Part shown: positions 18,671 to 52,129 of the stretch, in pieces
Numbering within the stretch: position 1 is the first letter of the stretch
Layout of the letters: the number at the start of each line of letters is the position of its first letter
From: Marsupella aquatica
Lineage: Eukaryota; Plantae; Marchantiophyta
Assembly: GCA_973895155.1 (NCBI GenBank)
Contig: OZ316894.1
Coordinates: 2,558,457 to 2,622,456, forward strand
Direction of reading: 5' to 3'
DNA: 64,000 bases
The notes under the pieces: generated by a model
The model's database searches: none
Seen by the model: only the letters and a program-made list of their open reading frames with translations
What the model was told of the DNA's origin: nothing
Program-made: the position numbers and the translations under genes

Positions 18671-21600
18671 TCACGGAGGGAAAGTGTCAATTTTGTGCCA
18701 ACCTCCTAGAGAGATTGAAATTAATGCATTGTAATAAAATGATAGTATCAAAGTTTGTGAATATACTCCTGGACAGATTTGAGTACGTATCTTAGGAGGA
18801 ATTTTCAATCCTCGATCTATAATGTTCTTTTCTTTCATACCCGATTTAAATCCATACATTGCAGACGAAGCATATTGCCATGCAATGTAGTCATTATCAA
18901 AATTTGGGTTGCGTTCCCAAATTTTGCTCGCCATGAAACACGTACGGTATCAGACTCCTTCGTCTGCATCAAGTTTTCCATGCTTTGGCCTCCACCATTG
19001 AAGCGGAAACATTGGAGCAACTCTATCCACAGAATTTTCATGAGGAAGTGAAGTTGATGTTGAAGTAACATCAGTGATTTTGTGCTTTGGGTCTATTTCT
19101 CCCACAGCTCGAACCAACCAACACAAACCTTTCCCGTACTTCTGTTCCCAATCATCTTCAGGACGAAGGAACACAAAATGTCCCTCCCAAATATCCTCAA
19201 GAGGATTCCAATGACACTTCTCTCTTTCAGAACGAGACCCCACAAAGGGTGTTGTACGATCCTCCATCTCCTTGTTATACTCATTTTGAAGTCCTGTCAT
19301 TTCTTGATTCTCCTCCTCCTCCACTGGTTCGAAAGGAACATCAAATTCTTCAGAGATTCCTCCATTAGACTTGTAGCCTGTGCCATGATTTGTCTTAGGC
19401 CAAAACCCAAATTGTAGCAACAAAATATTAATGTCCTCCCCATCCAATTTAAGGGATCCTGATAGCTGCTCCTTCACATTCTCCCAATATTTGATTAATG
19501 GTGATCGCTCACGATACATGGCAGATGTTGGATCAGTACAACTACTCTTGAGATGCTCAATAAATTTTCCAATAAATTTAAGCACATCATCTGATTCCTT
19601 ATGGAGGTCAACAATCCGTTTGGAAAAAGGTTGTCCATCAGGAATGCTCAGATTTTGAGTGATAGAATCTCTTTCCCAAATACACCTTCCATCCGTGGGA
19701 AGCCATGGTTGCTTCATATGTGTTTTGTATTGCCATATTGGTAAGTTCCTAGCTTTTCATGGAGAAAAGAAATGCAATTGGTTGTGATTGACCTGAGATA
19801 TCCTTTACATGCGATCACAAGTAGTCTTTGTATGCTGCAACCTCTTGAATCAACCTTGGAACAGGGTGGATGCTCTCGCATTCCCAGACTTCCGCCATGA
19901 GTGCCAACAAAGTTGAAACTTCTCGATTTTGAACTTGCTTTGCTACCTTTGAAAAAAGTGCGTCCACGTCCTCGTGTGTATGTCCAACCATGAGAAAGGA
20001 CATTTGCACCGTTTCAAAAACCCCTCTAGCAACAAGTTGGCTACAAAAGGCCATCACAGTTTGATTTTTATTATCCTTTCCGGAGTTGTCCATTTGTAGA
20101 GTAAGGTGACGCGGCAAGGGTTTGAAAGCGGACCTTGATTCTTTCCCTCTTGAAGCATCTCCTTGAGTCTGGGTTGATCCTAGATCAATCCCATCCTCCT
20201 CAATACCTTGATATCTAGTAACATCAAGCTTCTTTGGTTGTAAATATCCTTGTAGAAAAGCATCAAAATCAAGTAGCTTTTGAAATATCATCCGGGTGGT
20301 TTCCCAATAAAGCCCTACAACAATATCTCCAGTCTTGTCTCCATCATACTCTTCAAGATCACGGAGGCATTTGGCTAGCGAAGAAACAGTAAAATCTGAG
20401 TCTCCGGGCCATAGACCCGTAACACTAAAATGCGCATATACTCCTGGATCCCTACTGTGAGTCAACACTCCTGTGAGAGCTACAGGAAGTGGAATTCCCT
20501 GACCCGAAAGTGATTTTGGAAGGCTAGCCAATCTTGGTATCCATGTTTTGGCCTGATCCATCTTATCATGAATGATACAAAGATAATTATCAGGGTCTTT
20601 TTTGGCAAAAACCTGTGAGCATAATATTGGTACCTCTTGGACATCTGCTCCCTCAAGTGCCTTGATCTACTTTCTTCAATTTCTCCCCTTTCTTTCTTTC
20701 TTCTCTCCTTCATCAAACTCTCTTTGAATGTAATGCAAAGATTACACTTTGCAAAAGGTCCCTCCTTGTGAAAAGTGTAGTTATCAAACGATTTGTTCCA
20801 TGTAGTGTACATGGTATTGATCAAAACTGGTTCAACGCCATCTACTTGCATCTTTGATTTCACCTCCTCATAGATGTTCTTTTTGTTGAAGCATGAAGGA
20901 AGTTTGTACTCAATTCAATCTGTTCCACACATACCCGTATATGAAAGATGGGGCATCGGCTCTCCATATTCAATCAAGATGGCCTCAAGGTAAGCACGTC
21001 CAATCAATGTGCTTGATCTTGTTTTTGACACTCCAGTGTTTCCGTGGAAACCAATTTGACAACCATCCTCATACTGGCTTTTGTAACTGTAAAATTGGGA
21101 TCTACTAAACCCATGAATGGTATAAAAAGCCTCTCGACAAACTATCTGTCCATTGAGTACAAAATATCCTTTCTTCACCACCGAGTCCTCTCTGCAATGG
21201 AAAAGGTTAAGGATGTAACTTGTTTTGTTGTTGCAAGACATCCCATGGTACTCGCTTCTTCTTTCTTCCATCTCATCCCGTGAAATATTAAGGGTACACT
21301 TCAGTTTGCAACATTGTTCTCGTTTGATGGCATCAATGGACTCTTCAGTTATTTTTGTCACCACCCGAGATTGAAGATGTCTTCTCCGTCTTTCTTCAGG
21401 ACCAACCTTCATTCTCTTGATACAATTATATGGTCGTTTTGCTGCAGGAATGCTGAGAGTCTCCGGAGGGTCAACATCATATTTACCCTCTATTGCCCAT
21501 TTGTCAGAATACTTGTCCACAATATCTCCAAGAAAGCACCCATTAGCCTCAAGCTTCAAAGAATGAATGGCCCCACCTAATGAGGCCAGGAACACCCTTT

Positions 21601-22461
21601 TGTTCCAATGGGAAGAATGAAGTTTCAAAAATATCCAAAATTGCAACTCCAACGTTGTTTGGGCCAAGGGGTTCCCCGTCAACAACCCCTCCTTCATAAG
21701 GAACAGAAATCACACCTCGAGCAAGGAGATCTTGGCGATCTTTGGAGAATAACTCGACGTGCTCACCCATCCAGTCTGAACGAAGGACAAAATCCTTTTG
21801 CTTTTTGTTTGTAGATCCTGACAACAATTCTTTATTGAGTGACTTTGGCCCTCTGGGTTTGTGCCCCTCCTTCTAACATTAACTAAATCCCAAATCACCC
21901 ACGTGTCCTTTGCCTCAGCAACGGTTTCAGCTCCATCATGGATATAGGGCAAAGGGGCGGATCCATCATAGATCTCATTTATTCGAACACTAATCCGACC
22001 TTCTCCAAGAATGTCATTGTGACAATGATCAGTTGGGGACATCTTGAAAACAAATCCATTGGAGACATGCCGACCTGAAATGAGCATCTCCACCACATCC
22101 CCTTCCAAAAGTCTGGATCTATCTGTAATAGCTGTTGTATCAGTTACTGATGTTTGCCAATTGTCTACTATTGGATATGCAAAACCTGCAACATCTTCCC
22201 TGTTTGGACTAGTGTCACCATGTAGCAAAATAGATGACCTCTCCCATAAAACACAACATCAATTGCATCGTCAAGCTTGGTTGCCATTGGTGTTGGAACG
22301 GGAAGGGTGCGAGACCCCTCAATGGTCTTGAGAATCAAAACACCAATTCTTGATTCTCCAATCGTAATCTTATGCACAATATCAGCTGGATCCGTTTTCT
22401 GAACAATTCCAATTCCAACTTCATATCCATCAATTGTTAACATGACTTTGTCCCCACGCAA
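18671..22461 (-). pseudogene. Sola-like DDD transposase with three N-terminal repeats, fragmented
   Basis: CCKLKC..VCREAFYTIHGFS; FAKCNLC; CIIHDKMDQAK; LQMDNSGKDNKN; FLMVGHTHEDVDALFS; several frameshifts and stops. Confidence 0.8.
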
Positions 22462-23091
22462 AAAGTCACAAAACTTGAAAGAGTCAAAACCTAGGCATAA
22501 AGGAAATCATTTTGTTTCAAACAGCTGTGTCAAGCTGTACAAATTTTTATGGGGTACACAACATCATCAGTTATCTCACAAATTTTAGAATCTCAGCTGA
22601 GGAGTTGAGATGGGGCCTTCGAACTTCCGCTCATCTCAGCTGGGCAGTCAAGGTTGATTCAATCTCGGCTGACCTTGCCGAGATGGGCGTGCGGACCGAA
22701 AAAAACAAAAAAAATCAAAACCAAAAATTTTCCCAAAAACAAATTTTGAAAAAAAAAATTTCGGAAATTTTTTTCCCATCTCGGCTGGGCTCGCCAAGAT
22801 AGGTGTCCGTACGGTACGGACGCCTCCTGGCAAATTTTTTTAAAAAAAAAAAAGTTAAAAAAAATTCAAGAATTGTTTTTTTCTTCATTTTTTTCTTTTT
22901 CGCATCGCAACTTGGCGGCCTCTCTGAGATGAGGTGGCAGCTGATATCAGGTACACTGATGAAAGTGACTGATAACTGATGAGATTACTTATCTCAATTT
23001 TTATTCACTGTTGAGTGGGTCTTCACAAAACAAACCTTGATCATGCAGCCTCCATCAAAGGGGTCCAACCTGGATTTGGCTTATGCTAAAA

Positions 23092-23740
23092 CATCTCAAA
23101 ACTAAATTAAATTGAAAGTGCTCCCTTCAGCAAAATAATCTGATGGACATCTCCAAGCCTTGGATCGGAACTGAAGGTCAATACAAGATTGACCTTCCCC
23201 ATTTCATGATTGAGGCTTACGGTTAATATGAGTGATCACCCGAGTGATTCTACTTGATTTGAAGAGGAGGGTCTATACGAGATCAACCCACCTTTTAAAT
23301 GAAGAGTTTAGCATGCATACAAGACCAACAATCTTGCAAGTTTTGAGTGTTGAACCTAATAGTTGCAAGAGGGGGCTTGGGAGGATTCTCATTAATTCCA
23401 ATGATTTGATAATTGGATGAATGCGAGTTAAATTTATATAGTCTGATTCTACCATGATGGCTTAATTAAACTAAAATCTCAAAACTAAATTAAATGAAAC
23501 ATTGGTGCTTCCAATGTTAGGAACATAATCTGAGGAGCTGAGGGTCAATACAAGATCAACCCTCCGCATTTCACGGTTGAGGCCTAAGGTTGATAGGAGG
23601 GTGATTCTACGTGGTTTGAAGAGAGCCTGGGTTTATACAAGACCATCCCTCATTCTCATTTCAAGAGAGTTTGGAATACATATGAGACCAACCATCTAGC
23701 AAGTTTCCAAGGTTGATCCTAACAACTGCAAGAGGGAGAA
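23092..23740. repeat. Diverged tandem duplication (~380 bp period)
   Basis: atctcaaaactaaattaaat..ctga.ggtcaatacaagat..ttgaggc..cctaa..tgcaagaggg occurs at ~23092-23380 and ~23476-23740. Confidence 0.7.
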
Positions 23741-24116
23741 AGGAACTTCCACACAATTCCATACAAACATGAATACCATTTCATGATCTAAATGTGAATT
23801 GTGAAACCACTAGTTTTCATAACAAATGCAATTCAAATGAATTTGTTTAAAGATTACCTTCTGGTTGCTATGTAGTGGAACTCAAGGGCTTCTATAACAT
23901 TGTTTGACAGTTATTCAAGATTGAAAAGGCAATACAAGATGATAATTGGTCTTGTATTGAGAAGAAACTATATAGAGCCTAAATTTAGAAGCCTATGGTA
24001 GCTCCCAGAATTTAATGAAAATAAGTGTATCAAAATATTTTTTGAAAATGAAGATGACAAGACCCAAGAATTAGAATCAAAGTAAGAAGAACCTTCAATC
24101 ATGGACATAGAGGAGC

Positions 24117-24120
<4 letters not shown>

Positions 24121-24162
<42 letters not shown>
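24121..24162. repeat. (AG)n microsatellite
   Basis: Directly visible. Confidence 0.95.
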
Positions 24163-24167
<5 letters not shown>

Positions 24168-26768
24168 CTGTAGAGGCAAGTGACAAATGACTCGAATGAG
24201 CTCCAACTAGGAGCTTTATGCACTTGCCTCACAACAATCGATCAAGATTAGATGATAAGGGAAATCAGCTCGCAATCAACCTCTTGGACCATTCTAACTA
24301 AATGCGCCATTTTTCTGACAAGCTAGCGATCACCATTATTCAAACTCATGCATTTTATTGGAATGCTTACCACCACCGGGGCCGAAGGCATCGGAACATC
24401 ACTGGAATTTTTAAATCTCCAACTAGCTAGCTAAATATTGGGCCACCAAGCCAACTGTCACCTGCTTATCAAACGATTTACACGACAAATACATATTTAC
24501 TTCTACTAAAATTGTTTGTTATCGTATGACGGGAACGTGGAGGGACGCTATTAGGATTCTAGTGCATGTAGAATGAGTATGTTTATTTCCGCTCCCAGAA
24601 ATGTAGTTTTTGATCAAGTCTACCGACTAGCCGCTCTGCTTTTGATCAAGTCCCATGGACTACGCCACACACACACTCCTATTGGTCGCTGGTGGAGTGC
24701 TGTCACCACCCCCCTACTCACATGGTCGACCAATCCGTGCAAGTATTCTTTAGACACTTCTTGGGGAAAGAACACAATCGTGAACCAGAAAAGATAACGC
24801 CACACCAAAACTTGAGGAATCAAACCAAATCCATAGATATCTTTTGGCAAAACGTCGTAACATATTGCAAGGACAACCCGGCCTCTTGCCGTCTGCTGTC
24901 ACGCGATTGACATGGGTCTTAACACCAAAAATGTCACTATGGGTGCCAAAACCATCTCTTTGTACCTGAGGATCACGAAGGGATGTTGTAAAGGCCGGTG
25001 AACACCAATTTATGCCCTTAACACCAGACTATCATAACAAGACTCCGTCACACATCACCCAAGCTCAATCCCTAAGAACCAAGGTTGGGAATCAGATCTG
25101 CGCTCATGATAGTTCTGGTGAGAAGGGGCCTTCATATCGGGCCCGTACACACAGGGCCTAGCGCTATGGTGTGCATAGGTCTATACGTATGCTTACTGTC
25201 ATAAGGATGTTTCTATTCCGCCGCCGGAATATACCCATAAACCAGTGACTCCTGACTGATTCCCGACTTAGGGACTTCTACGCCATTGCCCCACCACTCT
25301 GCCATTCCACTCTCAGCAATCAGAGCTATGACAGTCCTCACCTAGCCCGCTTCAATGCACCCTGTACACCTCTCAGTGGTGCTGCTAGTCCCATCATACA
25401 CTCAGATTGCCTCACACACACACACATCCATGAGAGAAATGAGGCCTAAGAGGAAAACTCAATTAGATTCAACGATGTGCACAATAGTTCACTGAGAACA
25501 CTTGATCCGAACAATAGGCCCGAAGGCTCTCTACTCCAGATTGCGACGTGCTTGCCATGCAAGCTCAATCCTGAACCTGAGCCCGGCTCACTCCAGATTG
25601 TGACGGCAGATTGGACTCGAACCAATCCTGTACTTGCCTTGCAAACTCAATCCTGAACTTAACCTCCTTCACTGCACTTCATTCTTGGGGGCACATACAG
25701 ATCTCACACCTCCAATTCAGAACGTCAAGTTATGCATGCACAGTTGACTCGACTTCAAAGCTGGTACCAGGCCTAACAACGATCTATCCCAGACTGCAAT
25801 GAGGCCCGGCCTCACGCTTGCCCTGCAAGCTCCGCTCTGGCCATAGATCCCTTAGTGCTCTCCACCAGACAAAGGCCGGGACTTCCCATGGATCACGTAG
25901 CCTTGCCAGACTGAACTGTAAATGCTCCTCTTGCTGCCCCTCAATCAGTGTCTCAGCCTCCCTAATGTGCTCACCACAAATCAAATTGACATCCTCCCCA
26001 CAGTTTACAATCGCCAATACATCACCTATCACCAAGGCTCTGTATCGGGGGAAAAGAACCCAGTTGTGCTGCCCACTAGAAAGAGCCACAATCCAACTCG
26101 CAAACCTAGCAACTCGTTGCTATGAAGCTTGGCTGATTACTCCCTAAGTAATAGCACAACCAAGCTCTCCCCAACACGCAGTGTCCAAGTCCAGCCTTGC
26201 TTGCACAGAGCTCCTCCCTGCTGCTCAATCTAATTGAGATCACACAACTGAAGTCCCCCTGCCTCTACCAGGGGCTGCTCTATATACTCTCATACTGAGC
26301 CCAAATGGGTGGATACTACGCTGCTGGAGCCCCATCCCAGCCCTAACAGAGTCGCCACTATCTCTAACTACTGAACCCTAACTCGCAACTTTATTTCTAT
26401 CTCGAATTGGCTATGTACTTCGGATTCGACCCTCCTCCATGGTTTTTGCGAGCTTGCGCCTCCTCTCCCGATTTCTCTATTCAACCATTTGCTGCGTGGA
26501 TAGCAGCGTTGGAAGCGGCTTGAGCTCCTCTTTCCAACGAGGTCAATTATAGCCGATTTGGTCAAATACATAGAGAGTTATGCCCCCGCAACCGAGAGGG
26601 GGTACTCACTGCTGCGCTAACCCGAGTTTGGCTAACCTAGCTATCCTATCTAACCCGAGTAGAGCTAACCCGTGGTCTCGGGTTAGGCCGCTACCCGCTA
26701 TCCGCTATCCGCTAACCTAGCCTAAGCTGAGCCCGAATCCAAGCTTACCTATGCTAACCTGAGGCCGC

Positions 26769-26915
26769 GCTGACCTGAGCTAAGCTGAAGCCGTGCTGAC
26801 CTGAGCTAAGCTGAAGCCGTTCTTACCTGAGCTAAGCTGAAGCCGTGCTTACCTAAGCTAAGCTGAAGCCGTGCTGACCTGAGCTAAGCTGAAGCCGTGC
26901 TCACATAAGCTAAGC
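26769..26915 (+). repeat. 26-bp tandem repeat (~5.5 copies)
   Basis: gctgacctgagctaagctgaagccgt units start at 26769, 26795, 26821, 26847, 26873 and 26899 (partial). Confidence 0.9.
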
Positions 26916-28075
26916 CGTGGTCGAGCTTGGGTTAACCCGAAACTGAAGCCGAATCCGCTAATTCCGGTCACAAGTTAACCCGTCACACTAATCAGGCCGT
27001 ATCTTTCTTAATACACCTCCGTTTCTCGAGTGTTTTATATCGATTTTATTCGCCTTGACCAGATCTTTCCAATGCTCTTTACAGATCCGGATTTGGTGAC
27101 ATATTGAAAGAGATATGGTCATCGACCACCCGCGATATAGCTTTTATTTCCCTACTCTTAACGTCATGATTGCCCTTATTCTTGCCATCTTGCTAATTGT
27201 TATGCAATATCAATAACTACTCCTTGCATACAGCGACCTACTTAATCAGATTACAAAATAAGGACCATGTCATTGGCGTCACAACTGCCCAACTACTGCC
27301 TCACTAGGGCAAGTGCTACACCTCTACCTCACTACTCTGGCTTGATTCCCTCTTCTGGCTATGAGCTAACTTCCCTAAGCAAACACTAGACTGAGTTCCC
27401 CCCCTCATTACTCCGGGGCTCTCCCCCTAGATACCAAGAAAACACACCAAAGCACCCCTCACGGGGCCACAACGATGGCGGCTTACCCTAGCGGCGCCGC
27501 TAAACCCTTCACTAAGAAGCCCCCAAACTAAAAGCATGCGGCACACACATGCTTCTAAAACCCTAAACCCTAAACTAACAATGGGGCCGACGGTGCCTTC
27601 GACGGCACCCAACATTACTCCGTGAACCGTGAAATTGCAAGGAACCCCGCAATGGCCGAAACTAGGCGCCCATCCACTTGCACTTCTGAGTTCACCCCTG
27701 GATAGCTCTCCTCCTCCTGAACATGACGCACTCAACCGCTCTTGAAACGGACATCGGACGACCAAGTTATGGTCGTTTCAGTATCCCGTAAACCCAACTT
27801 CGTCGGGCCCTAACCTGCTCATCCTGGCTCTGTTTGAGGAGCGCTGCCTCTTGTTGGAATCAGCTCCGCGAGCCCTTTCCAACAAGCCCATGAGTGACCC
27901 CTCAAAAAAAAGTTGGAAAGTTAAGGGGCCGTACAACCACGTCCTCCTCTTCACTCACGGTGCCCTAGCTTGAGCCCCGTGAGTGGGCCTCCTCATCACT
28001 CCACTGGAGTGAGTGCCACCTCACTCCTCTTCTTCTTTACCGGGGTACTCCTTGTGCTAGTGCTCCCCTGCTTCC

Positions 28076-29395
28076 TCAAATTGGCCAAGGCCTGCCACGC
28101 CTTAATGTACCCCTCACCAATAGTGTCCTTCCATAAGGCCGCCTCTTCACCGGACCGCAACTCCAACGGTAAAACCTGCTCGGTGGCCATGGGAGTCCCA
28201 GGGGTGACAAGGCTCCCTTCAAGTTGGAGATCTCCACGTGAGCTGCTTGGAGAAGTTTAACCTTCTCATGAATGGCCTCCTCCTTGGCCTTGATCACCTC
28301 CTTCATAGACAGGGCACTCTGCTCCAAAGTCGCTACTCTGGCGATGGCCTCCTTGAGAGAATCTCTCAATGCGTGGACTAGCTTGAGTCCCTCATGGACT
28401 CCCTCCCAGAATTCCCGTAACTCCGCCAGGTAGACATCAGGAATGTCGTAGACCAGGGGCTCCTCCAGATCTCCCACAAGTGATTCAAGCCACTCCAATG
28501 TGGAGTCCTCATCCTGGTTTTCTTCCTCTCTATTATCATCCCCAACCGCCGACGATGATCCCTCCGTTAGTTTCCCCAAGATGGTAGTGGCAATACTCCT
28601 TATTTCCGTGGTAAGGGATGATCTAGAGTCTTCCTGTCCCGGGCAAACAATCCACCCTTCTACTCTGGCCAGCAAAAATGACCCCATCAAATGTATAGCC
28701 CCACCTGGTTTCACACTCCAGGGATCCGCGTCCAATAGCTTCTTCAACCCGTAGTACCACCATCCGTACACATGGGCTGGATAGTTCTTGATGTCCATAG
28801 CTACCACGAAATGCTCTCCATTCACCACCCCGGATTGCACGTTACCAAGGACCCGTTGATGAACCTTGGCCAGAAATCCTTTGTGCTCAGCATCCTTGAC
28901 GGCGGAAAGAGGAATGGAAGTAGTGGAGGTGGGATTAATCACCCAACCGGCCACCATTGTCAACGTGAGCTCTCCCCTTATGTTCCGAGGTGTGAATGAG
29001 AATTGTTGGTTCTCCAGGAACAGAAGCTTAGCTAACTCCATATGGGGCACTACCCGTTGGAGACATTCAAAGTAGATTCCTTCCGTACGTAACTCCATCT
29101 CGGCCCCAATGTTCCAACTCTTCCCCGAAGGGATTGTAATCTCCACCTTCATGAACTCCGTGAGCCCGGCGGCTTGAAAAATATTCCTACAATCCTCCAT
29201 CACCTTGGCGGAGGTTTTGGGATAAATTCGACGAAAAACCTTCCTCATAACCGGTGCTGGACTTGCTGCCGGTCCAGTACTCATCGTAGCGTCTCTCTCT
29301 TCTCTCTCTCTTGCAATCAATGTCTCAACGTAGTCACGGTAAGCAGCCTTGTATCTCCGAATGCGTGCCGCACTAAACTCCGGTTGATCCAGCAT
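28076..29395 (-). CDS. Unknown 439-aa protein with C-terminal coiled coil, likely a retroelement accessory ORF
   Basis: Long uninterrupted ORF; acidic linker and heptad-like LRDSLKEAIARVATLEQSALSMKEVIKAKEEAI; family not recognised. Confidence 0.45.
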   Translation of the reverse strand: MLDQPEFSAARIRRYKAAYRDYVETLIAREREERDATMSTGPAASPAPVMRKVFRRIYPKTSAKVMEDCRNIFQAAGLTEFMKVEITIPSGKSWNIGAEMELRTEGIYFECLQRVVPHMELAKLLFLENQQFSFTPRNIRGELTLTMVAGWVINPTSTTSIPLSAVKDAEHKGFLAKVHQRVLGNVQSGVVNGEHFVVAMDIKNYPAHVYGWWYYGLKKLLDADPWSVKPGGAIHLMGSFLLARVEGWIVCPGQEDSRSSLTTEIRSIATTILGKLTEGSSSAVGDDNREEENQDEDSTLEWLESLVGDLEEPLVYDIPDVYLAELREFWEGVHEGLKLVHALRDSLKEAIARVATLEQSALSMKEVIKAKEEAIHEKVKLLQAAHVEISNLKGALSPLGLPWPPSRFYRWSCGPVKRRPYGRTLLVRGTLRRGRPWPI

Positions 29396-31418
29396 CCATG
29401 CCTCCAGAAATCAAATCCTCAATCACCAAATCCCATCACCCGTAGCAATGTCAATCCCTGGCCCGAAACGGCCCTCGTATCCCGATCAATCAATTACCCT
29501 CCTCAATTCCCTCAGAAGCCACTCCATGCTGCTGCCGCTAATGCCCGGAAGAATCATGCCAACAAGCCCCAACAATTGACCAAGAGAAAGAGCTTCCAGA
29601 ATAATTGTAAAATGTGGAGAGAGCTTGGCAATGAGAGAACTTGCTTTCGGCAGAGTAAGAAGTCCCAAAGAGAAGGGAGGGAGAGAGAAAAAAACAAATA
29701 CAAAGGAAAGGGAAGTAAACCCCTTTCTTCACCCTCCTCATCGATTTTTTCTCCCGGCTCCCCTCACGCCATGCGCCCCGGCTCGCGGCCCTATGAAGGG
29801 CTTGCGTATGCCGACACGCGGCCCTCCTCACCTACCGTCCCCGCACCTCGCTGCAGGTGCCCAGTCCTCCAAGGCTGGGGGAATTTAATTTCCCCCCCCC
29901 CACTCGCAGCCCCTCATGCGGGCCCTTCCCACGGGAGATTAATTGCTCCCCCCCACTCCGCGATCTTCTCCTCCCGGCGCCGGCTGCGGCCCGGTTGCGC
30001 TAAGCCCCGGCTCGCCTCTCGCCCCAGCTCGCCTTGTGCCCCGGCTTGCCTCTTGCCCCAGCTTGCCTCGTGCCCTCGCTCGACTCGCCTGGGCTTGCCC
30101 ACTCGCGGGCTCCTCCTGGCTCTCGCACCCCGCCCGGTACCTCCCGGCTCCCCACAAGCCATGCGCCCCGGCTCGCGCCCTCTGGCTTGCGGCACCCTCT
30201 GCCTCGGGTTCTGCTGGTGGGCTCGCGGCCCTATGCAGGGCTCGCTCCCTCCTTGCGGTACCCCCTTTACTCGCGGAGCCCCGCTTAGCGCCCTCGTCCC
30301 GGCTGCACCTTGCTTTCTCCCCCTCGCTGTTGCGTCTACTTGCGGCTGCGGCTGGTGGGCTCGTGGCCCTATGCAGGGCTCGCGGCCCTCTCCTTTGTTC
30401 ACTCGCGGGGCCCCTTTTAAGAGGGCTCCTTGAGAGGGGTTTAATTCCCCCCAACTCCTTCTCGCCATGCGCCCCGGCTGACCTCGTGACCCGACTCGCC
30501 TTATGGAGATGCCAGGTGGCGTCCACAGGGGCTGCCCCTTATGGACCCCCTATTTCTCTCCCCTTTACCCCAACAACTGTTAACCTCTCAAAAGAACTCA
30601 TTCTCTTCTTTTGGCCCCTGTTGTGGTTATACCCATTTAACCCCAAAAAGAAAAGTTAACCTCTTGGACTTATAGGGGGAACTTGTCAATGGTTCAAGCG
30701 AAATGGCCAGGCCACCTATTTGCCCCCCAGGTTGTCGTGACCGTTTAGAACAATTCTGAGAAGGACATAAAGTAAAGTCCTCCTGCAACACCTACTTGAA
30801 AGGACGAAATTAACGCGAAAAAATTAAAAAACGGCTTATTTACAATGATTATTTACATGGCACAATCCAGTAAACAATTATTGAGGATTTTATGTGACGG
30901 GAGCCCTGTCACACCAACCACGCCAGCTAGGCCAGGCTATACTGTCTGACAATGACCAGGGCCAGTGGGCCGTACAATCAACCTTCATCCCTGTTTCAAG
31001 AGCGAGCCAGGCAAGGGGTATAGGGAGGAGGAGGGGGGCTGGGGAGCTCATTTGCTCCTCTCTCTTTTTGTGAATTTTCTCTCCTGCGCTCTCTTCTCTT
31101 CCTCTCTTGCTCTCCTCTCTTAGTCTGGCAGCGCTACCTCCTTCTCATTGCATGTAGCTGGCTGCAATTTAGGGTTTGGAGTGGATTGCGGTTGCCTACG
31201 TGTTTGAGTCTCCTACTGCCATGTGGCACCATCGTACAACTGACATTATGTCTGAGCTGGAGGTGAACTTTATCTACGACGATGATTACACTGAGGACGG
31301 CGGTGGTCCAAATGTCAAGGCCCTTCTTGAGGAGGCATTGAAAGATGGCAACAAGTTCAGAAAACATCTCCATGGTGCACACTTTTGACTCGCATACATT
31401 CCGCTTTTGTATTGAGAT

Positions 31419-31895
31419 GGTTGATCCCGGATCAACCCTCTTTTGATATGGATTCGTTGAAACCATCAATTATATTTGTGTCTCACTATGTGGTTAGACA
31501 TTCTTGATCTCTATGAATCCATAATTGTAGTGTGAAATGCAATAAATACTCTTTTCACAGGCATCGGGTTGATCCAAGATCAACCCTCACTATACACTTA
31601 AATTGTGTTGATCCGACATCACTCGGACTCCTATACACATGAATTCTTTCACTCAATCTGCACGGGTTGATTCTGGATCTACCTCCGCACAAATTAGGTT
31701 GATAAACTATTCCTCCACACAAACTAGGTTGATCCGGGATCAACCCTCTCTTGACACGGAGCTGGTTGATCCCAAATGAACCTTTGCTTTGCACATACAT
31801 TTGGTTGAATTTGGATCAGTCCTCCTCTTGTAATACAGATTGGGATGATCCGGGATCAATCCTCTTCTAGAGAAATTGTTGAATCCAGGATCAAT
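31419..31895. repeat. Array of GGTTGATC-N3-GATCAACC palindromes
   Basis: Perfect-armed copies at 31419, 31567 and 31727; variants at 31665, 31764, 31803, 31843 and ~31878. Confidence 0.85.
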
Positions 31896-31945
31896 GCTAG
31901 TTCATTTGAATTTCATGATCCAAGAGAGGATGCTAGGTTGGAAGA

Positions 31946-34900
31946 ATGTATTATTGTCACAGTGTCTTTTGGTTGTCAATGTTTTCTAAACTATTTGTGA
32001 CACAATGTGATTCTATTTCAAACAAAAAGTGGAGACACATCAAAGTGTCGGAACCGGTGACGGAGACAGTCAAGATTCTTGGAGTGCGTGAGAATAGCTT
32101 CGAATGGGCGTTGGAATTCATGACAGACGTGAGCTCTGGCCTTCAAATTCTTTGTGCAAAGTTGAAATCTCCCGGGCTTGATCCTCTTATTCCGGTTGGT
32201 CTTGGTCCGGTGGTCCGAGTCTCAATCCCAAATGGCAATGAGATTCATTGTACAGCAGAGAGTCAAGAGAATAAGAAGTGGATTTCTTTTACGCTACCAA
32301 TGAAGAAATACTCTTACAGCTTGAATGCTGATTGGGTTGGTCGTGGAGGAATCAGTGTGGTTGGGATGGGTTTATTTTCGGATGTCTGTACTGCTAAATC
32401 AATGTTAGAAGGAAATTGCATGATACAAACTGCGGCCGACATAGTTCTTGGATTTGACTTCCTGGCGTACTTTATCCAATCAAATCCTAATATTGTAACA
32501 AATCCAAACACTTGGCGGCTGGAGAAGTTGGTGAATAGCGCTGGTCTTGCTGACCGTGCTTTCAAGGTTTTTCTCAAGGGTGACTTGGTTTTTTGTGGTT
32601 GGGATGACAAGAAGGCTCGACGTTGGATTTCTACTTTGAAGAGCACACAGGTCGTGGATAAGCCAGGAAGTAGTTCAATCCCAAACCGGAGAACACTGAA
32701 ATTGTCAGGTGGAACCAATCCTTCTTCTCCGGAAAGATCTAAACCAGAGGAACTTAGGCCCATCCATTCCACTGTACCCGATCACAAGAAGTCTACGGTT
32801 AATTTGGTTCTTGGGAAAGGGAAGAGCATTCGATCAACTGAACCAAAAATTATTTTGAGTTCATCTAATGAGACCAATTCAGATGGTGGCAGTCTCAACG
32901 AATCGGATGAGAATAACGATGACACATCTGAGGAAGATGATTCAGACACTGAGGCAAGTGAAGATAATGGTAAAGTTACTACAAAATGCAAAGCAAAGCG
33001 AGCGAGGTCAGATTACTCAGAGGAGGAGGATGAAGTCAACACAAAGAAAAAGAAGAAAAATAGTCAACCCTCCACAAGAGTTTCGCGGCCTGCAAAAGAG
33101 AAGCGGCCAGCAACAGAGAAGAAGGCACGGGAGCCAAAGCCAAAGATGCCAAGGAAGAAGCGAGAGCCAAAGGTCAAGAACCCAACTAAAAAACAATCTT
33201 CACTTGAGAAGATGGCCAAAAAGAGGAAATCAGAGAAGGAGAACGCTTTCTGTAATTACCGCTACAAAAGGGATGATTGTGACGTATGAGGGGATGAAGG
33301 GCCAGCAGCAGCGCCTTTGGAGTCAAAGGTTAGAGAGTGTAGAGAGGTTTTGGATACGCTTGAAAAATACTACACATTTGGTATGGATGAGATTTTTCAA
33401 GGACCTGTGGATCTTATTGTCCCTCCACCAGCTCGACTTTGCTATTGAATGATAAATAGGGAGCACGTGAAACAGATTGCCGACTCCATGGTGGAGAAGC
33501 CAGGGCATCAACCGCATGTTGCTGATTTGATTGCCTTCTCACCAACAACAAAGAAGTTGGTTCATTTTGAGAACACTAAGGCAGATAGGAATGATTTTTT
33601 AGGAGCCATTGCAAAAAAGGAGATTATGTTCTTTGCAATTAGTGGGCAGCATTCAGCACGGGCGGCTCAATGGATTCAAGGCTGGGCTAAAACTGACGCA
33701 AAGCTCACAAATATTGCAAAGAATCTCATGCTAAGGAAAGCAAGGATTTTGTCGGACACTACGCCATCAGCAATACTTGCTGAGCATTCAAGCAGATCCA
33801 ATGCAATCAATGAGGCCATGGAGTTCAAGTCGTGTTTCCTAGAGACTGTCTTACATGCAAGAAGACAGTTTGTGGAGATGGGTCGTCCTCCAAAGCCCAT
33901 TGTTGGTTCCAATCAGAAAACTCATAACACACGATTTAATGTGAGTTTTCATACCCTTCTTGAGGTCAAAAACAATGTTTTAGACCTGAATGTTTCTATT
34001 GATCTCCATATTTTCATCAATCTTGGTGGGAGGGGCTATACGGGATCAACCCTCTTTGTTTGTGATCTATCTAGTTGTCAACTCTAACAATCCAATTTGT
34101 TGTGTTTCTAGGAATGGGCAAAAGTCGCAATGCACACACTGAACCGAGCATCATTGAAACAGATGTATTGGTTGATTCTTGCTGATGACAATCTTTTCAT
34201 TCTTTGGAAGAAGGTATGTCAAATGTGGCTTGACGGAATCCTTCCAGATGGTGCTGGTGAGACTGGGAACAAAAGAGCAGGGAAGACAATTACTCCTGCC
34301 CCTTTCCGTTGTTTTGAAGGAGATGTGAGTGCATAGGAAATTATTTCAATTTTAAACTCTGTGGCGAGTGGACACTTGCTTCTCAAAAAAGATGCGACTA
34401 ACAAAAGTTTCATTTCCACAATGGGAGAGAAGGCACATACAATAAAGATATTGAGAAAGTTGAAGCTGCACATTATCCAGATCCTTGTGGATAAACACCC
34501 TGAGACCTTTGCACCGACGGCCACATGGGGCTCTGCAATTAGCATTTTGCCAGCTTTGGAAAAGCCAGGTGAGTTGGATCGATTGTGGTGGGCGGCTGGA
34601 GAAGTATTTCTACAAGGGTTGTTAAAGAAGGGTGCTGCAAAGGAGGATGTTCCTCAAAGTCTTGTGTTAAGACTTGAAACCCTCTATTGTGCACGGTTTG
34701 GTGGAATTGCCCGAAAGCGAACAGAGCCTTTGTTGCTTTTTGGAGTGAGAACTTGATGAAGACCATCAAGCCAGATGTCTTTGAGGAGATTTCTCCACAA
34801 TGTCCTCTTGCAATAGTGGATTTTAGTCGAGAAAGGCAAAGGGACTGGACTGATTCCGAGCTTTTGGTTTTCTTCAACTATATTTTGGAGTAGTCTAGAA

Positions 34901-36740
34901 ATTCGACAATTGTTGTAGTGCTGATAGCCCTACCTGGTATGCTTTGCACAAATATTGTGCTTGCACTCAACATGCTTCGAAGGGAGAAGAAAGTGAGTGT
35001 CCACTACGAGTATGGCAGCTATTCCACGGCACAGGGGCCCCAGCCGAAGGGAACATTTTGGGATGGTGCCCAAGAGCAAGTGATATTTGCTGGGCTTTCA
35101 AGTGATGAGCAAGTTTGGTGGTGAGATATTTTCAAGCCGCAAGCACTTGTGCCCACTTTTTACTATAGTGAGAGTCAAGACTGTGATTTTCTTATTCGGG
35201 ATAACAAGTGTCACAAGTCAGGAGGGGAGGAGGAGAATGTCGCAGCAAACGCTGTTCAAGGGCAAAACAAAATGTCACCGTCTAATGTGCTCAAGATTAT
35301 TGAGAGTGCACCAACCTATGAAATGGTTGGTCATAAAGGAGGTTTTGTGAATCCGACTGGCAAGCCCCAACGGATGATTAATGAGATCTTGAAGGCACTC
35401 TCCGTGCCAGGTGATACAATTCTTGATTTTTTTCTGGAGGCCAAGTTCTTAAATGTTGTTTACTGTCTGCAAGAGAGTGTTTTGTATATTCGGACACACA
35501 AGCAGAGTTTGATTTCACGCAAGCATATGCAAGGATGATATATGAAGACGTTCCATCAATCAAAGCTTCATTTTGTTTGCTTCCATCAAATGATGATAGT
35601 TTACGTCATGAAGATCTTGGGCAAGATTATAATCTTGCTACTTCAATTCTTCCTGCTCGACCGAGCGTTGGTGCTTTGGTTTCACAAATTGCAGATTACA
35701 CAAAGACTCTGGTTGAGAGAGAGACTATCGATGGAGAGGTGATGGAGTCATGGGATGATGCAAATGCTTTTTGCTTGAACGGTGCACAAACAACTCCTAC
35801 TGCCCCATGCCCACCAAGTGCACGAAGCAGTCACGGAACAGGAGGCCTTGGGGCTGATCTATTGGTGGAGCAAATTCCCAAAAATGTTCTTGGAGGAACG
35901 CTTTCGTCAACGGCGGATGCAGGGTGGGAATCTTCTAATCCACTTTTGAGTGGTGAGTATCCTGGACGTGAAAAGACTGTTGGAGGTCCCATTAGTGGAC
36001 TTCAAGGGGATACTCAGGAGAGACATCCGGAACATAATCAAGATGTCGAAGGAAATGTTACATCTCCAGTTGTCGATGGATTTGGTACAATAAGAGGACA
36101 ATTGGAAGAAGGGGAGATTGGAAACCGAGTGCATCATTTGAGTGATGATCTCCTAACTCCAACAGGCCCACGGGATTGTCCACAGATTCAAGCTATGGTG
36201 GAACAAGTGCATGTGAAGGAGAACAAAGCACCAAAAGTCCCACCAACAAAATTGGTAGAGATGGGAACGACTCAAGGAGAGAAGAAAGTACCACCAGTGA
36301 TTGCAAAAGGTGGCCCGATGGATGCTAAGACGTCCAAGAGTGGCACTCTTCAGGCAGGTGCATCCATTTCTTCCACGTCTCCTAGTTATTGTTCTTCAAA
36401 TGACAAATTGGTTTTCATGTCTAGCTCTACGGGCAGCCCTGTGGTCCTACTACGATCAAAAAATCCTGGAAAGACTCTAGGAAAGACAGGGTGGGTCCGT
36501 GAACAGGCCGAGTGCACACATTTCATCTGGATAGATGGACCTAAAAAAGGAGAGATTGTTTCAAAAAAAGATGCTACTGGAATATTGATTGATCCTGAGT
36601 ACTTAAGGAAAGGGAACAAGTTGCAACCAGTCTTTTCAAAGCCAACTTATGTTAATGAAGCTCCCTCAGATGTCAACTATGAGCTTCAGAATATGCTAGG
36701 TGAAGCAACCATCGATGAGTATGGGTCTTTTAGCATGTAA
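31946..36740 (+). pseudogene. Multidomain ParB/Srx-like + beta-class N4/N6 DNA-methyltransferase-fold protein (disrupted)
   Basis: PVDLIVP..CY(R)MINREHVKQIADSM..FAISGQHSARAA (ParB-like); NPTGKPQRMINEILKALSVPGDTILDFF[SGG] (motifs X-I after restoring one T in T7 at 35427-35433); intron GT 33941 to AG 34111; five in-frame TGA/TAG stops. Confidence 0.72.
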
Positions 36741-36988
36741 ATGTACACTTGTACATCCTCTAAAATCCATTTTGAACTCATTCGTTAACAGAGGTAGATG
36801 AAGAGATATCAAGTGTGAAGAAGCAGTCACGGCCAAAACTATGCAATTCAGAAGGTATTTGGTGTGGTCATTTATTGTTTTGTCTGTTTTTTTGATGAGT
36901 TTGTCGATGGCGTCGGCTCATGACCCTCTTTGGTTCTTTATTGGTTATTCGGTTTGATTTTGATATCAAGTGATTTGACATCTTACAG

Positions 36989-37764
36989 AACTTGATTGGG
37001 ATCGCATTTCCAAAATATCTCCCTCTCCGATCAAGCGAAAGCTACTAATATTGGACCTGAACAAAGTATTGTGTGACACCACAATTCTTTGGCAGCAAGA
37101 CCATCCACCATTTGATGTCAAGGCTGGTGACCATGTGGATAGGCGAAAGGGTGGTACCTATGTTTATACAGAACGCCCCGGACTTCATGCATTTTTGGAG
37201 TTTGTTTTTGAAAAATATGATGTAGGCATTTGGACTTCTGCGAGCAAATCTCGTGCATCTCGGATGATGAAGATTTTGTTCACTACTCAAGAGAGGCGTC
37301 AATTGAGATTTATTTTTTGTCAAGAAGATACAACTGACGCATGCATCTTAAGACCAGATGGGAGATGTAATATTTTTATGAAGGATTTTCAGAAGGTGTG
37401 GAGAAAGTTTGGAAGTTTGTATGACGGTTCAAACACCATTCTCATTAATGACTCCCGATGGAAGGGATTTCTTAATCCCAGTTGGACTCAGTTAATCCCT
37501 AGTGCATTCACGCGAGAAGAAAAGTTTGACAATTTTCTCATGGTAGTTTTGGCACCATATCTTCACAAGTTGACACTGGCTTTCGACGTTCGACTTTTTT
37601 TGTTTGAGAATCTTCCAAAGTGGTCGTATTTTGAGACGGTCTGCGTTGTCCTTATTTTGCTCGGGAGAGGAGAGGCAGGCGCGGGGAGGGAGGCAAGGCA
37701 AGTCGTGACTAAACGGCTGCCAAACGGTCATGGGATAACGTTGGCTCCCTGGCCGGATGTGTGA
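36989..37764 (+). CDS. HAD-superfamily NIF/FCP1-type phosphatase domain
   Basis: KRKLLILDLNKVL, ERPGLHAFLEFVFEKYDVGIWTSA, KDFQKVW, NTILINDS; starts after the acceptor ttacag at 36988. Confidence 0.85.
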
Positions 37765-40700
37765 CGACCAGGGTTTCGGACGTCCGCACACTTTTGGTGG
37801 ACGACCATTTTGGGCCTTAACCAGGCAGCCCGTATGGGCACGCAGGCAAATAATTGAGACCCCTTAATGTAAAAAACAATATTCATGGCAGGAAAGAGAC
37901 AATTAGAATATTCATAAAAGTAATTGAAAGTGTTTCTGGTTTTGGAAATGATTCCAATATGTATGATATAGTGCCACTCACATTTTTAATTAATTTTACT
38001 TTTAATTTTAATAAATTAAATATATTGATGTAAAGTGTGTACTATTGGAGGGAAAAAAATGGACATTTGGGTCCAAAAAGTGTACATGTGAAGAGAATTG
38101 TATGGATATTTTGATCCAAAAAGTGTACTTTTGGGACTCAACTTTTGGATTTTCAATTGTTCACTTTTAATGAATAGTCTGATCTGGGTGCTGGGTTTGA
38201 AATTGACTTTGTGTTCAAAAATGTACACAAATGACTATAGGAGAAAGGTAACCGGGTTGCAACTACAATACATTACTTAAAATTGTCTGACACATCCGCT
38301 CTTTCAACTTAAGAAATCCATCGCCCTTTGAGAAATGTAAGCTAATTTCAAAATCCTTCATCCTCCGAGAAGTGTGCGCTGTTTCCAAAATGTTAGGCAG
38401 CAATCCGGAAGTATCAATATATTGTTCTGCTGTGTGAACTTTTGATGGACTTTCACATCAACCTCTGACTGACACCATGGCGTCTCATCAAAGAAACCCA
38501 TAGTACCTATGTGCATAATTAGGTCTGACGACTCACTTTCTCTATTTCTAATTTTCCATTGCCCTCAAGATCAAGGCAGTCCAATAGAAACAAAGCAATC
38601 TCACGAACATTCCAGATTGCATGCAGAAAGATTAAATAATAGAAATGACCAAATTGGCCACAATCAACCGAACAACAGTGAAAGTGGACAAATATGTTTT
38701 ACTAAGTGATAATAGTACACTTGGTAAGCATGGTTTGTCACGTTTTGTTTTCTATTGCAAATTTGATTTCTCCCCTTGTGTAATTCTAGTGGTTCAATTA
38801 TTTAGCTAGACATCATTTGACTGAGCAAATATTGTTGGGAAGTTGTAAAACCTAAACTTGAACACACTCCTCTCTACTACACATGACTTCTATGTCTATC
38901 ATTCCTACTTAGACCCTACATGCATCTCACAATGCCAAAATTCAAGCAGATTACCTTAAATTTGAACACAATGCCACATTTTGAACACAACGCCACATTT
39001 CTAACACAGGGCCCAAGTCCAAAAAATGAAAACATTGACTTCAGACTCAAACACAGCGCCCACCTTGGCTCACTATTTGAATATAGTGCCCGGGCCTTGT
39101 GTTCAGGGGAAGATGGTAGGCCAGTAGGGAGCCACCTTGGCTAATTTTGAAATACAGAAAACATGGCTGGTTGGGACCTTTCTATTTTATCTAGAGTAAT
39201 TTATATCTGTGCATGTATGGACAACAAAACTGAAACTCCCTAGACCATGTTTGACAAACTGCTCAGATGGACCATTGAAACTGGAAGGAGTGGTCTTGAA
39301 ATGGTATTTTCGCTCAGACAACTTGATTTTTTCTTTCTATCAATGCTCACTTCTTGGCATCAAGAAGTGCTCAGTTATTCCTTATCCTTAGATCAAAGTT
39401 GGTGGTCCAGCCAAGCATCAACTTGATAGAGGAACTCTTGTCACCACATACCAAATTATAATAGGACCTTAAGCGACTTGGGAATGATTCACAAGACAAA
39501 GTTGGAGTTGGAAGCTTGATAGTGTTTGTGGTGTAATATTTTAAGGAAAAAGTGAAAGCCTCCTCCCCACTAAGTTTAGGTATGTGAACTCAGTGTGCAA
39601 AAACTCTAGAACTCAACACTTCTAGATCAGGCATGAAGGAAGAAATATATGAAGGGCTTTAAAAGAAAGTTTGTGGAAAAAGAATTCCTTGTGAACCAGT
39701 CATAGATCAAGTTGCCGAGGTCCATAATCCAAGTTCTTGAGCTGTGCCATGTGGATTTAAACTAACAATCCACTTATTTCATGAACTCAGTTGCAAGGCG
39801 CATAATCTCAGTAAGACATTGATGTATCTACAGCAAAACCTTGTGACCATCACTAGATGTAATCCATTAGTACAGGTTTTTTTCCCATTTAGCTTGTAAA
39901 GCTTTTGACTTAGACACAAAAACATTTCAGTATCACTAGGTTTAAAGGAGAACTATTGCATTGGGCAACTAAACCTTTTAATTAGATAAGACTTGGCAAA
40001 TGAAAGGTGAAAATCTCAATATTTTTCTTCATATGAAGGAGCCACGGCATGTTCCAAGTACGGTTTAGGCAAGACTTTACCTAACAAATGGCTGGTGTGA
40101 ATACAACTTTTCAGGACCAATTTCCATGGACTGAAAACTTCTTTGATTCTTAGTCAGTCAAAGCAAGATTACTCATGAATCGAAATCAATACTGTATGGA
40201 TAACTTTGTGAACTGCTTCAACAATGGACTTTAGTGATCATATATTTGACAGACAGCGGCCTAACTACTGGTGTCAGCATTTGTGACACACCACTGGGTA
40301 TTCAGGCTGGTAGTTCTGCCATCTGTATAGGCTTCATTGCCGTGCCACAGGAACTGATCAGAAAGTTTCCAATGGCTGGCCAGAAGCTCTAGTTATGAAG
40401 ACAATTTGTACATGGATGCAACTGAATGTTTGAATGCTGTGTGGAAACACTAGGCTCATAGGAACAGTTTGGAGATGCATGCTAATGAATTTTTTTCAGT
40501 CTGCCTGGAAACTCTAGTCTTGAGTTTTTATTTTAAGCATTGTGCATAAATTTATCTTTGGCATTTCCTGGCAATACTCATAGTTAGTTACTACTTTCCT
40601 TGAAGGCTCATAGAATTTTGAGTCTCATTTGAGTGTCTTGTCTGGACAGCAAATTTTAACCATGTGAGGACGTTTCAGTGTTGAAATGTAGTGTTTCATA

Positions 40701-50415: not shown

Positions 50416-51551
50416 TTAGGATTGCTGCTGAGAAAGCAAAACAAGAAGTCCCTGTTTGCCTAACAGAATCTCATTGGCAAAGCTCATTATAGCAACCCAA
50501 ATCACAGGGGCAACATCTACTCCCCCGACGGGTGGTATCAGTCTCCTTGTAGGCCCAAGCACCGGCTCAGTGGGAATATAAGCCAGAAAAAAAGGGAATT
50601 TCTTGACCGGAATTCCTGGGTACCACGACATCACAATTCGGAAAATGAACAAAAGGTTGAAGATGGTGATAAAAGGACCAGCCAAACTGGTAGCTAGCTG
50701 AGCCGTCCCTGGATCTAAGTCACCGAGAATCGACACAAAGCGGGGGAGCATCTCCATAGATAATGAATGAGAAGGGATGGGATCCAACTCCGTAGCAGAT
50801 GCACTCGAATCAAATATCGACAGTCCAAAAGCTGCGCAACCAGCACTAAATCCAATTCGTGTAAAGCTATCGTTACCAAGGTCTTCCCCATCTGGCTTGA
50901 CAGTGCAATTACACCTCTGAAGCATTTTTCCAGAATCAGTCCTCCCGAGTGATCCACCATGGCGAACAGCTACTCCATCCTCAACCCTCATCCCATGCGC
51001 TACAGGAGGATGGGTTGTTTTTCTCCTCGTGGACCCTAGAGTGGACACTCTGCAGGAGTACATACAAAATGATAAGCCATTGCAATTTGAACAGGACTTA
51101 GGGTTTGCCAGAGGACCTATTAGTTCTTTGCTATTGCTTGAGTAGGAGAGCAAGAAGAAAGGGGCCAACTTGTAAGATTCCTCGATCAGGATAAGGAGCG
51201 TGATATGTGTGCTCAGAAGTTGGTATACAAAAAACAGGAAAGGTTGCTCTGCTACCTCACGGAACTACTTCCAACCTTCTCACCTGATTACTCCATGATT
51301 ACTGACTCAACTAGACAGTCCACACTCATGACGCACCTTGGAGACTTGAACGAGGAGGACTCCCCTCCAGTGAACCCTTCGCTTTCCAGGGCAGCTGAAG
51401 TTCCGGAGGAACGCCGTGATTGCCGCAGATGAAGAGAATGCCATTTCAAGGTCCGTGAGTTCAACCCGGATTTCTTCAATGACGGGGCCCCCAACCCATT
51501 CCTACAGAATAATTCCGCTCCCATGCAAGCGCAAAGCAATTGAGTCGCCAT
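50416..51551 (-). CDS. CCB3: Chloroplast cytochrome b6 heme-attachment factor CCB3 (YGGT family), 2 exons
   Basis: Exons 51551-51337 (transit-peptide-like) and 51049-50416; DLDPGTA..LFIFRIVMSWYP..PTEPVLGPTRRLIPPVGGVDVAPVIW. Confidence 0.9.
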
Positions 51552-52129
51552 CCCAGTGTCTGAGATCACCTGGCCTCCTCCGTCGTGCAAGTTTTGGCCA
51601 GTCAGCCGGGGCCCCTTCTCAATCACCTTCCACTCACAACACCATCATCGTCAAACCTCGTGTATAAATTTGCTGCTACAATAGTCGAAGCTGGCCTGTC
51701 TGAGAATGGATTCTCCTGTCTGAGAATTCGACCGCTCCAGAGTCTCCAATCTGAGAATAGATTCTCCTGTCTGAGAATTCGTTCTGGCTGCAATTGCAAT
51801 TGCTCTGGGGATGCTCTGCTCCTTCGCCCTGTCTCATACGTAGAGCCTCGTTGTCCTAGAGTCTTCACCTTTGAATAAACAGTGCTGGACGGGGGACAGA
51901 AAACCCACTCACCAATCGATGATGTTGAGCAACTACGCCATACCTCGCCTCATCTCCGTTGTTCTCCTCCCTCTCCCGAATCCCAACACTGTTGATCAAT
52001 CCGCCAATCAATCACTCACTCACTCTCTGGCTATGGTACCAGTCCAATCATCCACTCTCTCGCTATGGTATTACATGCGAGAGTCCATTCAGATTTCCGA
52101 AGGAGAAGGTCGGCCCAGCCCCTTAGTGT

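Follow-up and report, generated by a model that had tools for sequence, protein, structure and literature searches.

The window analysed here, a stretch of 64,000 nucleotides from the liverwort Marsupella aquatica (contig OZ316894.1, positions 2,558,457 to 2,622,456), contains a copy of a cut-and-paste DNA transposon which, next to a broken transposase gene, carries an accessory (cargo) gene for a protein combining a ParB/Srx-like domain with an amino-methyltransferase-fold domain (Table 1). This copy of the cargo gene is dead; it has five in-frame stops, four of them inside 33290-35540, and two frameshifts, at about 34714-34741 and 35427-35433. From the motifs of its unbroken homologues, we lean, by a small degree, towards the reading that the intact relatives are non-methylating, sequence-specific binders of 19-bp palindromes of their own element, and that the window gene is a dead copy of such an accessory gene.

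Table 1. Features of the transposon copy and of its cargo gene, in positions of the window
Feature	Position	Strand	Remarks
Cut-and-paste DNA transposon copy	17781..39116		21,336 bp; TA on both sides (17779-17780, 39117-39118)
Left 8-bp terminus	17781..17788	+	exact inverse of right terminus in other copies
Imperfect subterminal inverted repeat	17837..18072		pairs with 37975-38215
Broken transposase gene	18950..22506	-	DUF7869 domain in 19818-20666, E 1.6e-39
Nested insertion, 454 bp	22544..22997		joint 22543-22998; absent in contigs of 4/4 runs
Nested insertion, 6,463 bp	24451..30913		high depth, 5-bp duplication; joint 24450-30914; absent in contigs of 4/4 runs
Candidate first exon of cargo gene	31221..31388	+	short ATG frame, 55 aa; putative splicing
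Palindrome cluster	31419..31896		9 copies at up to 5 mismatches, 2 perfect
Further palindrome copies	18368, 20172, 23270, 23543, 23630, 34033		34033 inside cargo intron
Cargo gene (ParB and methyltransferase folds)	about 31937-36740	+	from homologues aligned with the window
Cargo N-terminal part	31937..33286	+	in frame with ParB part across TGA at 33287
ParB/Srx-fold domain (predicted)	33290..33940	+	box II GQHS; stop 33446
Intron, 171 nt, GT-AG, phase 0	GT 33941 to AG 34111	+	holds one palindrome (34033)
Helical conserved region, ~210 aa	34112..34741	+	stop 34334
Beta-class amino-methyltransferase-fold domain (predicted)	34714..35600	+	stops 34891, 35122
C-terminal conserved domain	36297..36740	+	conserved 36297-36734; gene end 36740
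NIF/FCP1-like HAD phosphatase frame	36979..37764	+	motif DLNKV; Pfam E 4.1e-18

Homologues aligned with the cargo gene imply a protein of about 1,550 residues or more, and cover, in this order, an N-terminal domain, the ParB part, the helical region, the methyltransferase part and, up to 36734, a C-terminal domain. The conserved N-terminal domain (32051-32641) is beta-rich and, in its predicted structure, weakly PH-like (Z up to 6.5); it is followed, within the N-terminal part, by a low-complexity linker of acidic and basic residues, while a variable acidic linker precedes the C-terminal domain. The intron is supported by a Calypogeia protein (P0002) that is continuous over the junction, and by seven N-half homologues that lose similarity there. 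Contigs from three of the four sequencing runs have one extra base at 34728; the first frameshift may accordingly be specific to this copy, or else stem from an error in the assembly. Two unbroken homologues are 61% and 59% identical to the gene (E 1.9e-84 and 1.4e-78, respectively).

A sequence-only reading of the window had proposed a hidden ParB-like and N4/N6 methyltransferase-fold gene in a plant transposon, interrupted by stops, one intron and two frameshifts. This architecture stands, as does its setting inside a mobile element, for which the ends, a TA duplication and a transposase could be mapped. The motifs it named are all found by six-frame translation: HVKQIADSM (33464-33490), ISGQHS (33638-33655), AIVDFSR (34810-34830), NPTGKP of motif X (35350-35367), ILDFF (35419-35433), FFSGG in the next frame (35427-35441) and LLSARECF (35460-35483). 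The extent of 33290..35540 given to the gene was too small, with conserved domains also located at 32051-32641 and 36297-36734; the altered ParB box II, the ends of the element, the NIF gene and the palindromes had been missed.

The methyltransferase part is predicted to adopt a class I methyltransferase fold in the beta-class order, with motif IV before motifs X and I, as had been proposed. A structure model of homologue P0020, calculated from an alignment of 11 sequences with a mean predicted local distance difference test (pLDDT) value of 52.3, matches CcrM in Foldseek (E 1.2e-6) and superimposes onto MboIIA with a Z-score of 14.8 (root mean square deviation 4.7 for 163 aligned residues), onto rotifer N4CMT with a Z-score of 13.1 and onto METTL3 with one of 10.0. 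The Atlas model of P0002 agrees with this fold, and the nearest predicted structures are N6_N4 methyltransferases of phages or bacteria (template modelling scores 0.54-0.57), some of them fused to ParB. In the window piece, the Pfam family N6_N4_Mtase (PF01555) matches the motif X-I stretch only, with E=1.7e-4 and 22 bits, the gathering cut-off being 26.7 bits; homologue P0013 scores above it with 29.2 bits, and the other homologues listed score 17.5-25.9 bits or have no match. The spacing between motifs IV and X, 160-181 residues, compares with 150-175 in six phage enzymes. Motifs X, I and II form the best-kept region, with 55% identity and 26 of 75 columns invariant among five homologues; in all five, the cores of which are 36-71% identical, motif I reads DFFSGGQVL, while in the window DFFSGGQV (35419-35450) has the second frameshift inside it. 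Four of the five retain the Asp of motif III. Compared with the six phage enzymes, motif I lacks one residue, and the position of the ribose-binding acid of strand 2 is in register occupied by Ser or Ala, with a variable Asp adjacent.

At the motif IV position, the window reads DFSR in place of DPPY. In an ungapped count from the first aligned residues, Asp173 of P0020 is in register with Asp31 of CcrM, Asp30 of MboIIA and Ser107 of N4CMT, and the flanks of the motif line up by eye with the six phage enzymes. For the family-wide state, 147 new representatives were considered, 41 of which align across motif IV and 45 across motifs X, I and II. Motif I, the S-adenosylmethionine-binding motif, hardly varies among these representatives. 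The Asp is kept in 37 of the 41 and followed by Phe or Leu in 38; the double proline is present in none, and the fourth position, that of the Tyr, is Arg, His or Lys in 35, Trp in one and Tyr or Phe in none. A canonical [DNS]PP[YFW] is absent from all 147, wherever it is looked for in the sequence, and a canonical motif IV is likewise absent upstream of motif X in the 12 earlier homologues. Judged from these alignments, D-[FL]-x-[RHK] in place of DPPY is the state of the whole family, hence DFSR is not a product of decay; the inspection of intact homologues, which the sequence-only reading had proposed, bears out the replacement it had noticed.

The proteins share with M.MboIIA, CcrM, M.RsrI, rotifer N4CMT and the plant enzyme DN4MT1 the fold, the motif order IV...X-I-II and the register of the first residue of motif IV (PMC10406627; 10.1101/2021.02.12.428880). 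They differ from these beta-class amino-methyltransferases in lacking (D/N/S)PP(Y/F), in the shortened motif I and in being multidomain proteins of a transposon. Beta-class enzymes are dimers in which the aromatic residue of motif IV stacks the flipped base, as the Tyr of rotifer N4CMT does with its target base (PMC10406627). With DPPY replaced throughout the family, methyl transfer may have been lost.

For the N-half of the cargo protein, a ParB/Srx fold is predicted with moderate match strength, more weakly than the methyltransferase fold. The model of homologue P0005 (alignment of eight sequences, mean pLDDT 50.5) matches PadC with a Z-score of 8.3 (root mean square deviation 3.3, 99 aligned residues), KorB with 8.2, SerK with 7.0 and Srx with 6.0, all moderate scores, over model residues about 264-431; in Foldseek, the best Srx match has an E of 7.4e-3 (probability 1.00) and a phage ParB one of 3.2e-3. 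Six of the seven top structural matches belong to what we take to be ParB/Srx-fold families. There is no Pfam ParB match at E up to 1 in the window piece or in any of the eight aligned N-halves, so the ParB assignment comes from predicted structure only; PHROGs gave no ParB profile match at E up to 0.1 and a PDB sequence search with the N-half gave no match. Models of unbroken homologues thus match both folds, the outcome on which the sequence-only reading had staked its proposal. In P0118 and P0144, the ParB box and motif I of the methyltransferase are located within a single chain. In the window copy, box II has GQHS where GxxR would be expected, and ISGQHS is present in all nine N-half homologues and in three further homologues (12/12 examined). 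The box II Arg is required for nucleotide binding by ParB folds, and its replacement by Ala abolishes binding (10.1101/2025.10.10.680097). With GxxR replaced by GQHS, binding of nucleoside triphosphates (NTPs) may have been lost as well.

A 19-bp palindrome, GGTTGATCCNGGATCAACC, recurs inside the element. Allowing up to three mismatches, eight matches are found, none of them outside the element, against a chance mean of 0.10; with up to four, there are 11 in the 14.4 kb of the element, one in the nested inserts and none in the 42.7 kb outside the element (control mean 0.08, maximum 2 of 100). The copies, in which GATC pairs are present, cluster 5' of the cargo and transposase genes and also occur within the transposase gene. 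Exact matches at eight metagenome loci were set aside as chance, these loci having nothing else in common with the element. The natural reading of the palindrome is that of a candidate dimeric, parS-like target of the cargo protein.

According to the reading we favour, the cargo protein would dimerise on the palindromes and would still hold S-adenosylmethionine (SAM) or S-adenosylhomocysteine, without methyl transfer or NTP binding. It may keep the two divergent promoters open or shield them from host silencing, and the NIF phosphatase-like neighbour might act as a second regulator. The model for this is VANC of the Arabidopsis VANDAL transposons, for which anti-silencing has been shown (PMC5735166), whereas for the cargo protein it can only be inferred. 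The analogy is one of how the systems might work, no homology being claimed: in both, an extra transposon-encoded protein is accompanied by element-specific motifs repeated in non-coding regions. More tentatively, and with a good deal of doubt, the family may represent parS-like self-recognition in transposons of the liverwort lineage, in which a dimeric ParB/pseudo-methyltransferase counters silencing by the host through reading or shielding its own palindromes, which contain GATC (or in which the D-x-x-R site performs a new base chemistry). Land plants would then be represented by this family in a class of transposon helpers with the ParB fold that spans kingdoms and to which the algal proteins and DUF3723 of Starships also belong. 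Plant transposons are known to encode only a few proteins that regulate the element itself or counter silencing, and the family offers a testable pair: a defined protein, of which unbroken homologues are available, and, as its candidate target, a defined 19-bp sequence.

Several points weigh against a non-methylating palindrome binder. Retention of the catalytic Asp and of the SAM motif fits an active enzyme as well. In a profile-profile comparison with the six phage methyltransferases (hhalign), only the motif X-I stretch, 47 columns long, aligned (E 4.9e-7); motif IV, which did not, is located in a stretch with pLDDT near 56-69, downstream of a poor loop, and its register was counted from the ends of aligned ranges. 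The methyltransferase and ParB models were built on only the 11 and eight sequences mentioned above, with correspondingly low mean pLDDT values, and many of the 147 matches are fragments or decayed copies. No Foldseek match of the ParB part has an E under 0.001, and the Z-score of 8.3 is close to the caution line of the tool. Finally, the palindromes could be transposase sites.

It is possible, though we think it considerably less probable, that the protein is catalytically active, as an amino-methyltransferase whose motif IV is non-canonical (the Asp retained, a basic residue replacing the stacking Tyr), and writes N4-methylcytosine (4mC) or N6-methyladenine (6mA) on its own element, for instance at the GATC pairs of the palindromes. 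The retained Asp of motif IV, the strong conservation of motifs X and I and the motif III Asp all agree with this. Unusual strand-4 motifs occur in eukaryotic methyltransferase clades (PMC4738411, section 8), and the algal counterparts have been proposed to modify their own DNA (PMC12477816). However, both prolines and the stacking aromatic residue are gone in all members examined, motif I is short and the strand-2 acid is Ser or Ala; METTL14 and the methyltransferases of DIRS elements illustrate that folds of this type are often retained in an inactive form (PMC4738411). The same source describes chlorophyte Dams fused to ParB-HTH and, in the parts consulted, no such family from land plants.

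We regard it as improbable that the palindromes serve the transposase and that the ParB-methyltransferase is a transpososome partner, a chromatin adaptor by means of its PH-like domain and its C-terminal one, or an inert passenger. The copies in the transposase gene and 5' of it would suit the first part of this proposal and the additional conserved domains of the cargo protein the second. Yet the densest cluster adjoins the cargo gene and not the termini, and ParB genes of red algae likewise adjoin inverted-repeat arrays (10.1101/2025.02.11.637652). An inert passenger would not be expected to show conservation down to 36% identity.

In a library clustered at 50% identity, 208 representatives matched at E up to 0.001, 150 of them listed and 58 weaker ones not; earlier, three unbroken homologues had been found for the methyltransferase part and seven for the ParB part, with three more by profile. 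All named relatives are from liverworts, Calypogeia fissa (eight proteins on at least six contigs) and Riccia sorocarpa (seven proteins), in both of which the copies are dispersed. None of 40 pattern matches in viral contigs and none of 328 in metagenome contigs was confirmed as a relative. Most likely, the cargo lineage came by way of eukaryotic transposons, such as are known in algae, its domains being of older prokaryotic origin. Direct transfer of a ParB-methyltransferase fusion to the plant lineage from a phage or bacterium, with introns gained later, seems quite improbable. It would account for the phage and bacterial enzymes nearest in predicted structure and for the PHROG DNA-methyltransferase matches (E about 1e-4), but not for the lack of confirmed viral or metagenome relatives, the weak phage tblastn matches (E 0.2 at best in the 15 listed out of 19), the spacer of ~210 helical residues between the two domains, the proximity of the ParB part to fungal clusters or the same two-domain design in algal transposons (PMC12477816). 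Of the prokaryote-derived, intron-bearing gene suggested by the sequence-only reading, the prokaryotic type of the domains and the intron hold, and a fresh prokaryotic fusion new to eukaryotes, as that reading implied, is not supported; the change into a DNA or methyl-base binder that it also suggested stays a conjecture. We consider it very improbable that the cargo gene is a domesticated gene of the host, similar to Marchantia DN4MT1: the named relatives do belong to the group with a known 4mC writer, but MpDN4MT1 is a host gene with a TSPPY motif, present as a tandem gene pair (10.1101/2021.02.12.428880), features the cargo gene does not share, lying as it does inside a transposon, broken here and with many dispersed copies elsewhere.

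The closest published system is Sola1-1_Ec32 of Ectocarpus, an algal DNA transposon with an accessory protein combining ParB and N4C/N6A methyltransferase domains (PMC12477816). In both cases a DNA transposon of more than 10 kb contains a single gene with ParB-like and amino-methyltransferase parts on the strand opposite to the transposase, and the Ectocarpus protein has been proposed to bind its own element. The two are likened by domain description, and they differ in host (alga against land plant) and in protein length (1,104 residues against about 1,550 or more). The Ectocarpus element has a 4-bp target site duplication (TSD) and a 282-bp terminal inverted repeat (TIR), whereas a TA duplication, 8-bp termini and an extra NIF gene are found here; the window element thus lacks the 4-bp TSD and long TIR of Sola1. 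Motif IV and ParB box II are replaced in the liverwort family, a point stated from the liverwort side of the comparison. In Bostrychia, Plavaka elements encode PAG2, with PF01555 and SET domains, and PAG3, with ParB and 2-oxoglutarate oxygenase domains (10.1101/2025.02.11.637652). These resemble the cargo gene as transposon-borne ParB and N6_N4 methyltransferase domains with inverted-repeat arrays beside the ParB gene, and differ in that each of the two domains has a gene of its own, where it is combined with other partners, and in that the elements are of EnSpm/Plavaka type.

By language-model features, the ParB part is closest to eukaryotic/fungal clusters including DUF3723 (0.95-0.96); the likeness to DUF3723 itself (score 0.95, 12 of 30 matches) is a lead only, and Pfam finds no DUF3723 at E up to 1 in any of eight family members. 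DUF3723 (PF12520) is a conserved cargo of fungal Starships (10.1101/2021.12.13.472469). Among the papers listed by the literature search, none dealt with a land-plant transposon gene combining ParB and methyltransferase, and none combined DUF3723 and ParB. Since ParB and N4/N6-methylase accessory genes have already been published for algal transposons, what is new here is a land-plant and, from its motifs, probably non-catalytic variant. If so, an annotation of ParB plus "methylase" on eukaryotic transposons need not imply writing of 4mC or 6mA. Beside DN4MT1, liverwort genomes contain a second, unrelated family with a predicted amino-methyltransferase fold.

Without its two nested inserts, the element is 14,419 bp long. 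Its right end follows from read mapping, with 14, 20 and 21 contigs of runs X1, X2 and X4, respectively, diverging behind 39119 and others behind 39113; the left end was placed from the reverse complement of the right terminus of other copies, at 17778-17788. The right terminus of the window copy (39109-39116) has two mismatches with respect to the inverse of the left one. Six X1 contigs with loose ends join left-flank sequence directly to 39117, as expected for an empty site, which favours a TA duplication over an 11-bp TIR without TSD. The best arms of the subterminal repeat, 41 nt long and 85% identical (17853-17893 and 38157-38197), were rejected as element ends, the read mapping having put the right end at 39116-39119. 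An 11-nt motif is present near both ends in the same, not inverted, orientation (17837, 17853, 38984, 39003 and 39050).

The transposase, which has a DUF7869 domain and may be a DDE enzyme of "Sola-like" type, probably has a further 5' exon near 24100. The 6,463-bp insert contains a 26-nt tandem array (26709-26928) and a 444-residue frame on the reverse strand (28076-29410) with no clear Pfam match; no pair of long terminal repeats (LTRs) was found for it. With both inserts removed, the 5' regions of the transposase and cargo genes are contiguous, with the genes pointing apart (head-to-head). On the other side of the cargo gene, 3' of it, is the NIF frame. NIF is joined to the methyltransferase in gene models P0065 and P0136, i.e. 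in two of ten long homologues scanned, one of them from Riccia, making it a stable companion of the cargo gene. Read depth relative to the flank is about 1.5-4.8x over the cargo gene and about 69x at the right end (X1), a hint only, depth not being copy number and X1 possibly being the run of the source sample. Short deep matches at 33633-33687 and 35396-35432 reveal, in the same runs, another family of this ParB-methyltransferase gene, more distantly related and, it appears, more abundant, at about 11-22x the flank depth, to be read with the same reserve.

Elsewhere in the window, a Ty3/Gypsy-type retrotransposon on the reverse strand (1603-8494) encodes a pol protein with a C5 DNA-methyltransferase domain between protease and reverse transcriptase and with a C-terminal PHD finger. 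The C5 domain matches PF00145 above the cut-off (E 4.2e-6), with motifs ELFGG, GWECQG and ENT; its motif IV reads ECQ, not PCQ. An element of this kind, KnitGypsy-Dnmt3, has been described for Klebsormidium, with no land-plant case in the parts of that source consulted (PMC5890265). The end of a second PHD-bearing retroelement is located at 62516-62995 (reverse strand) and about 63266-63568, 67% like 2362-2664. A decayed non-LTR-type element (10877-14881, reverse strand; RVT_1 E 2.1e-13) is surrounded by three copies of a 270-500-bp repeat (about 941, 10242 and 15894). Genes of host type are a YGGT family frame (50416-51063, E 8.1e-15) and a ribosomal L6 domain (57492-58049, E 2.3e-12), both on the reverse strand, and a 57-nt tandem array of about 11 copies spans 52071-52710.

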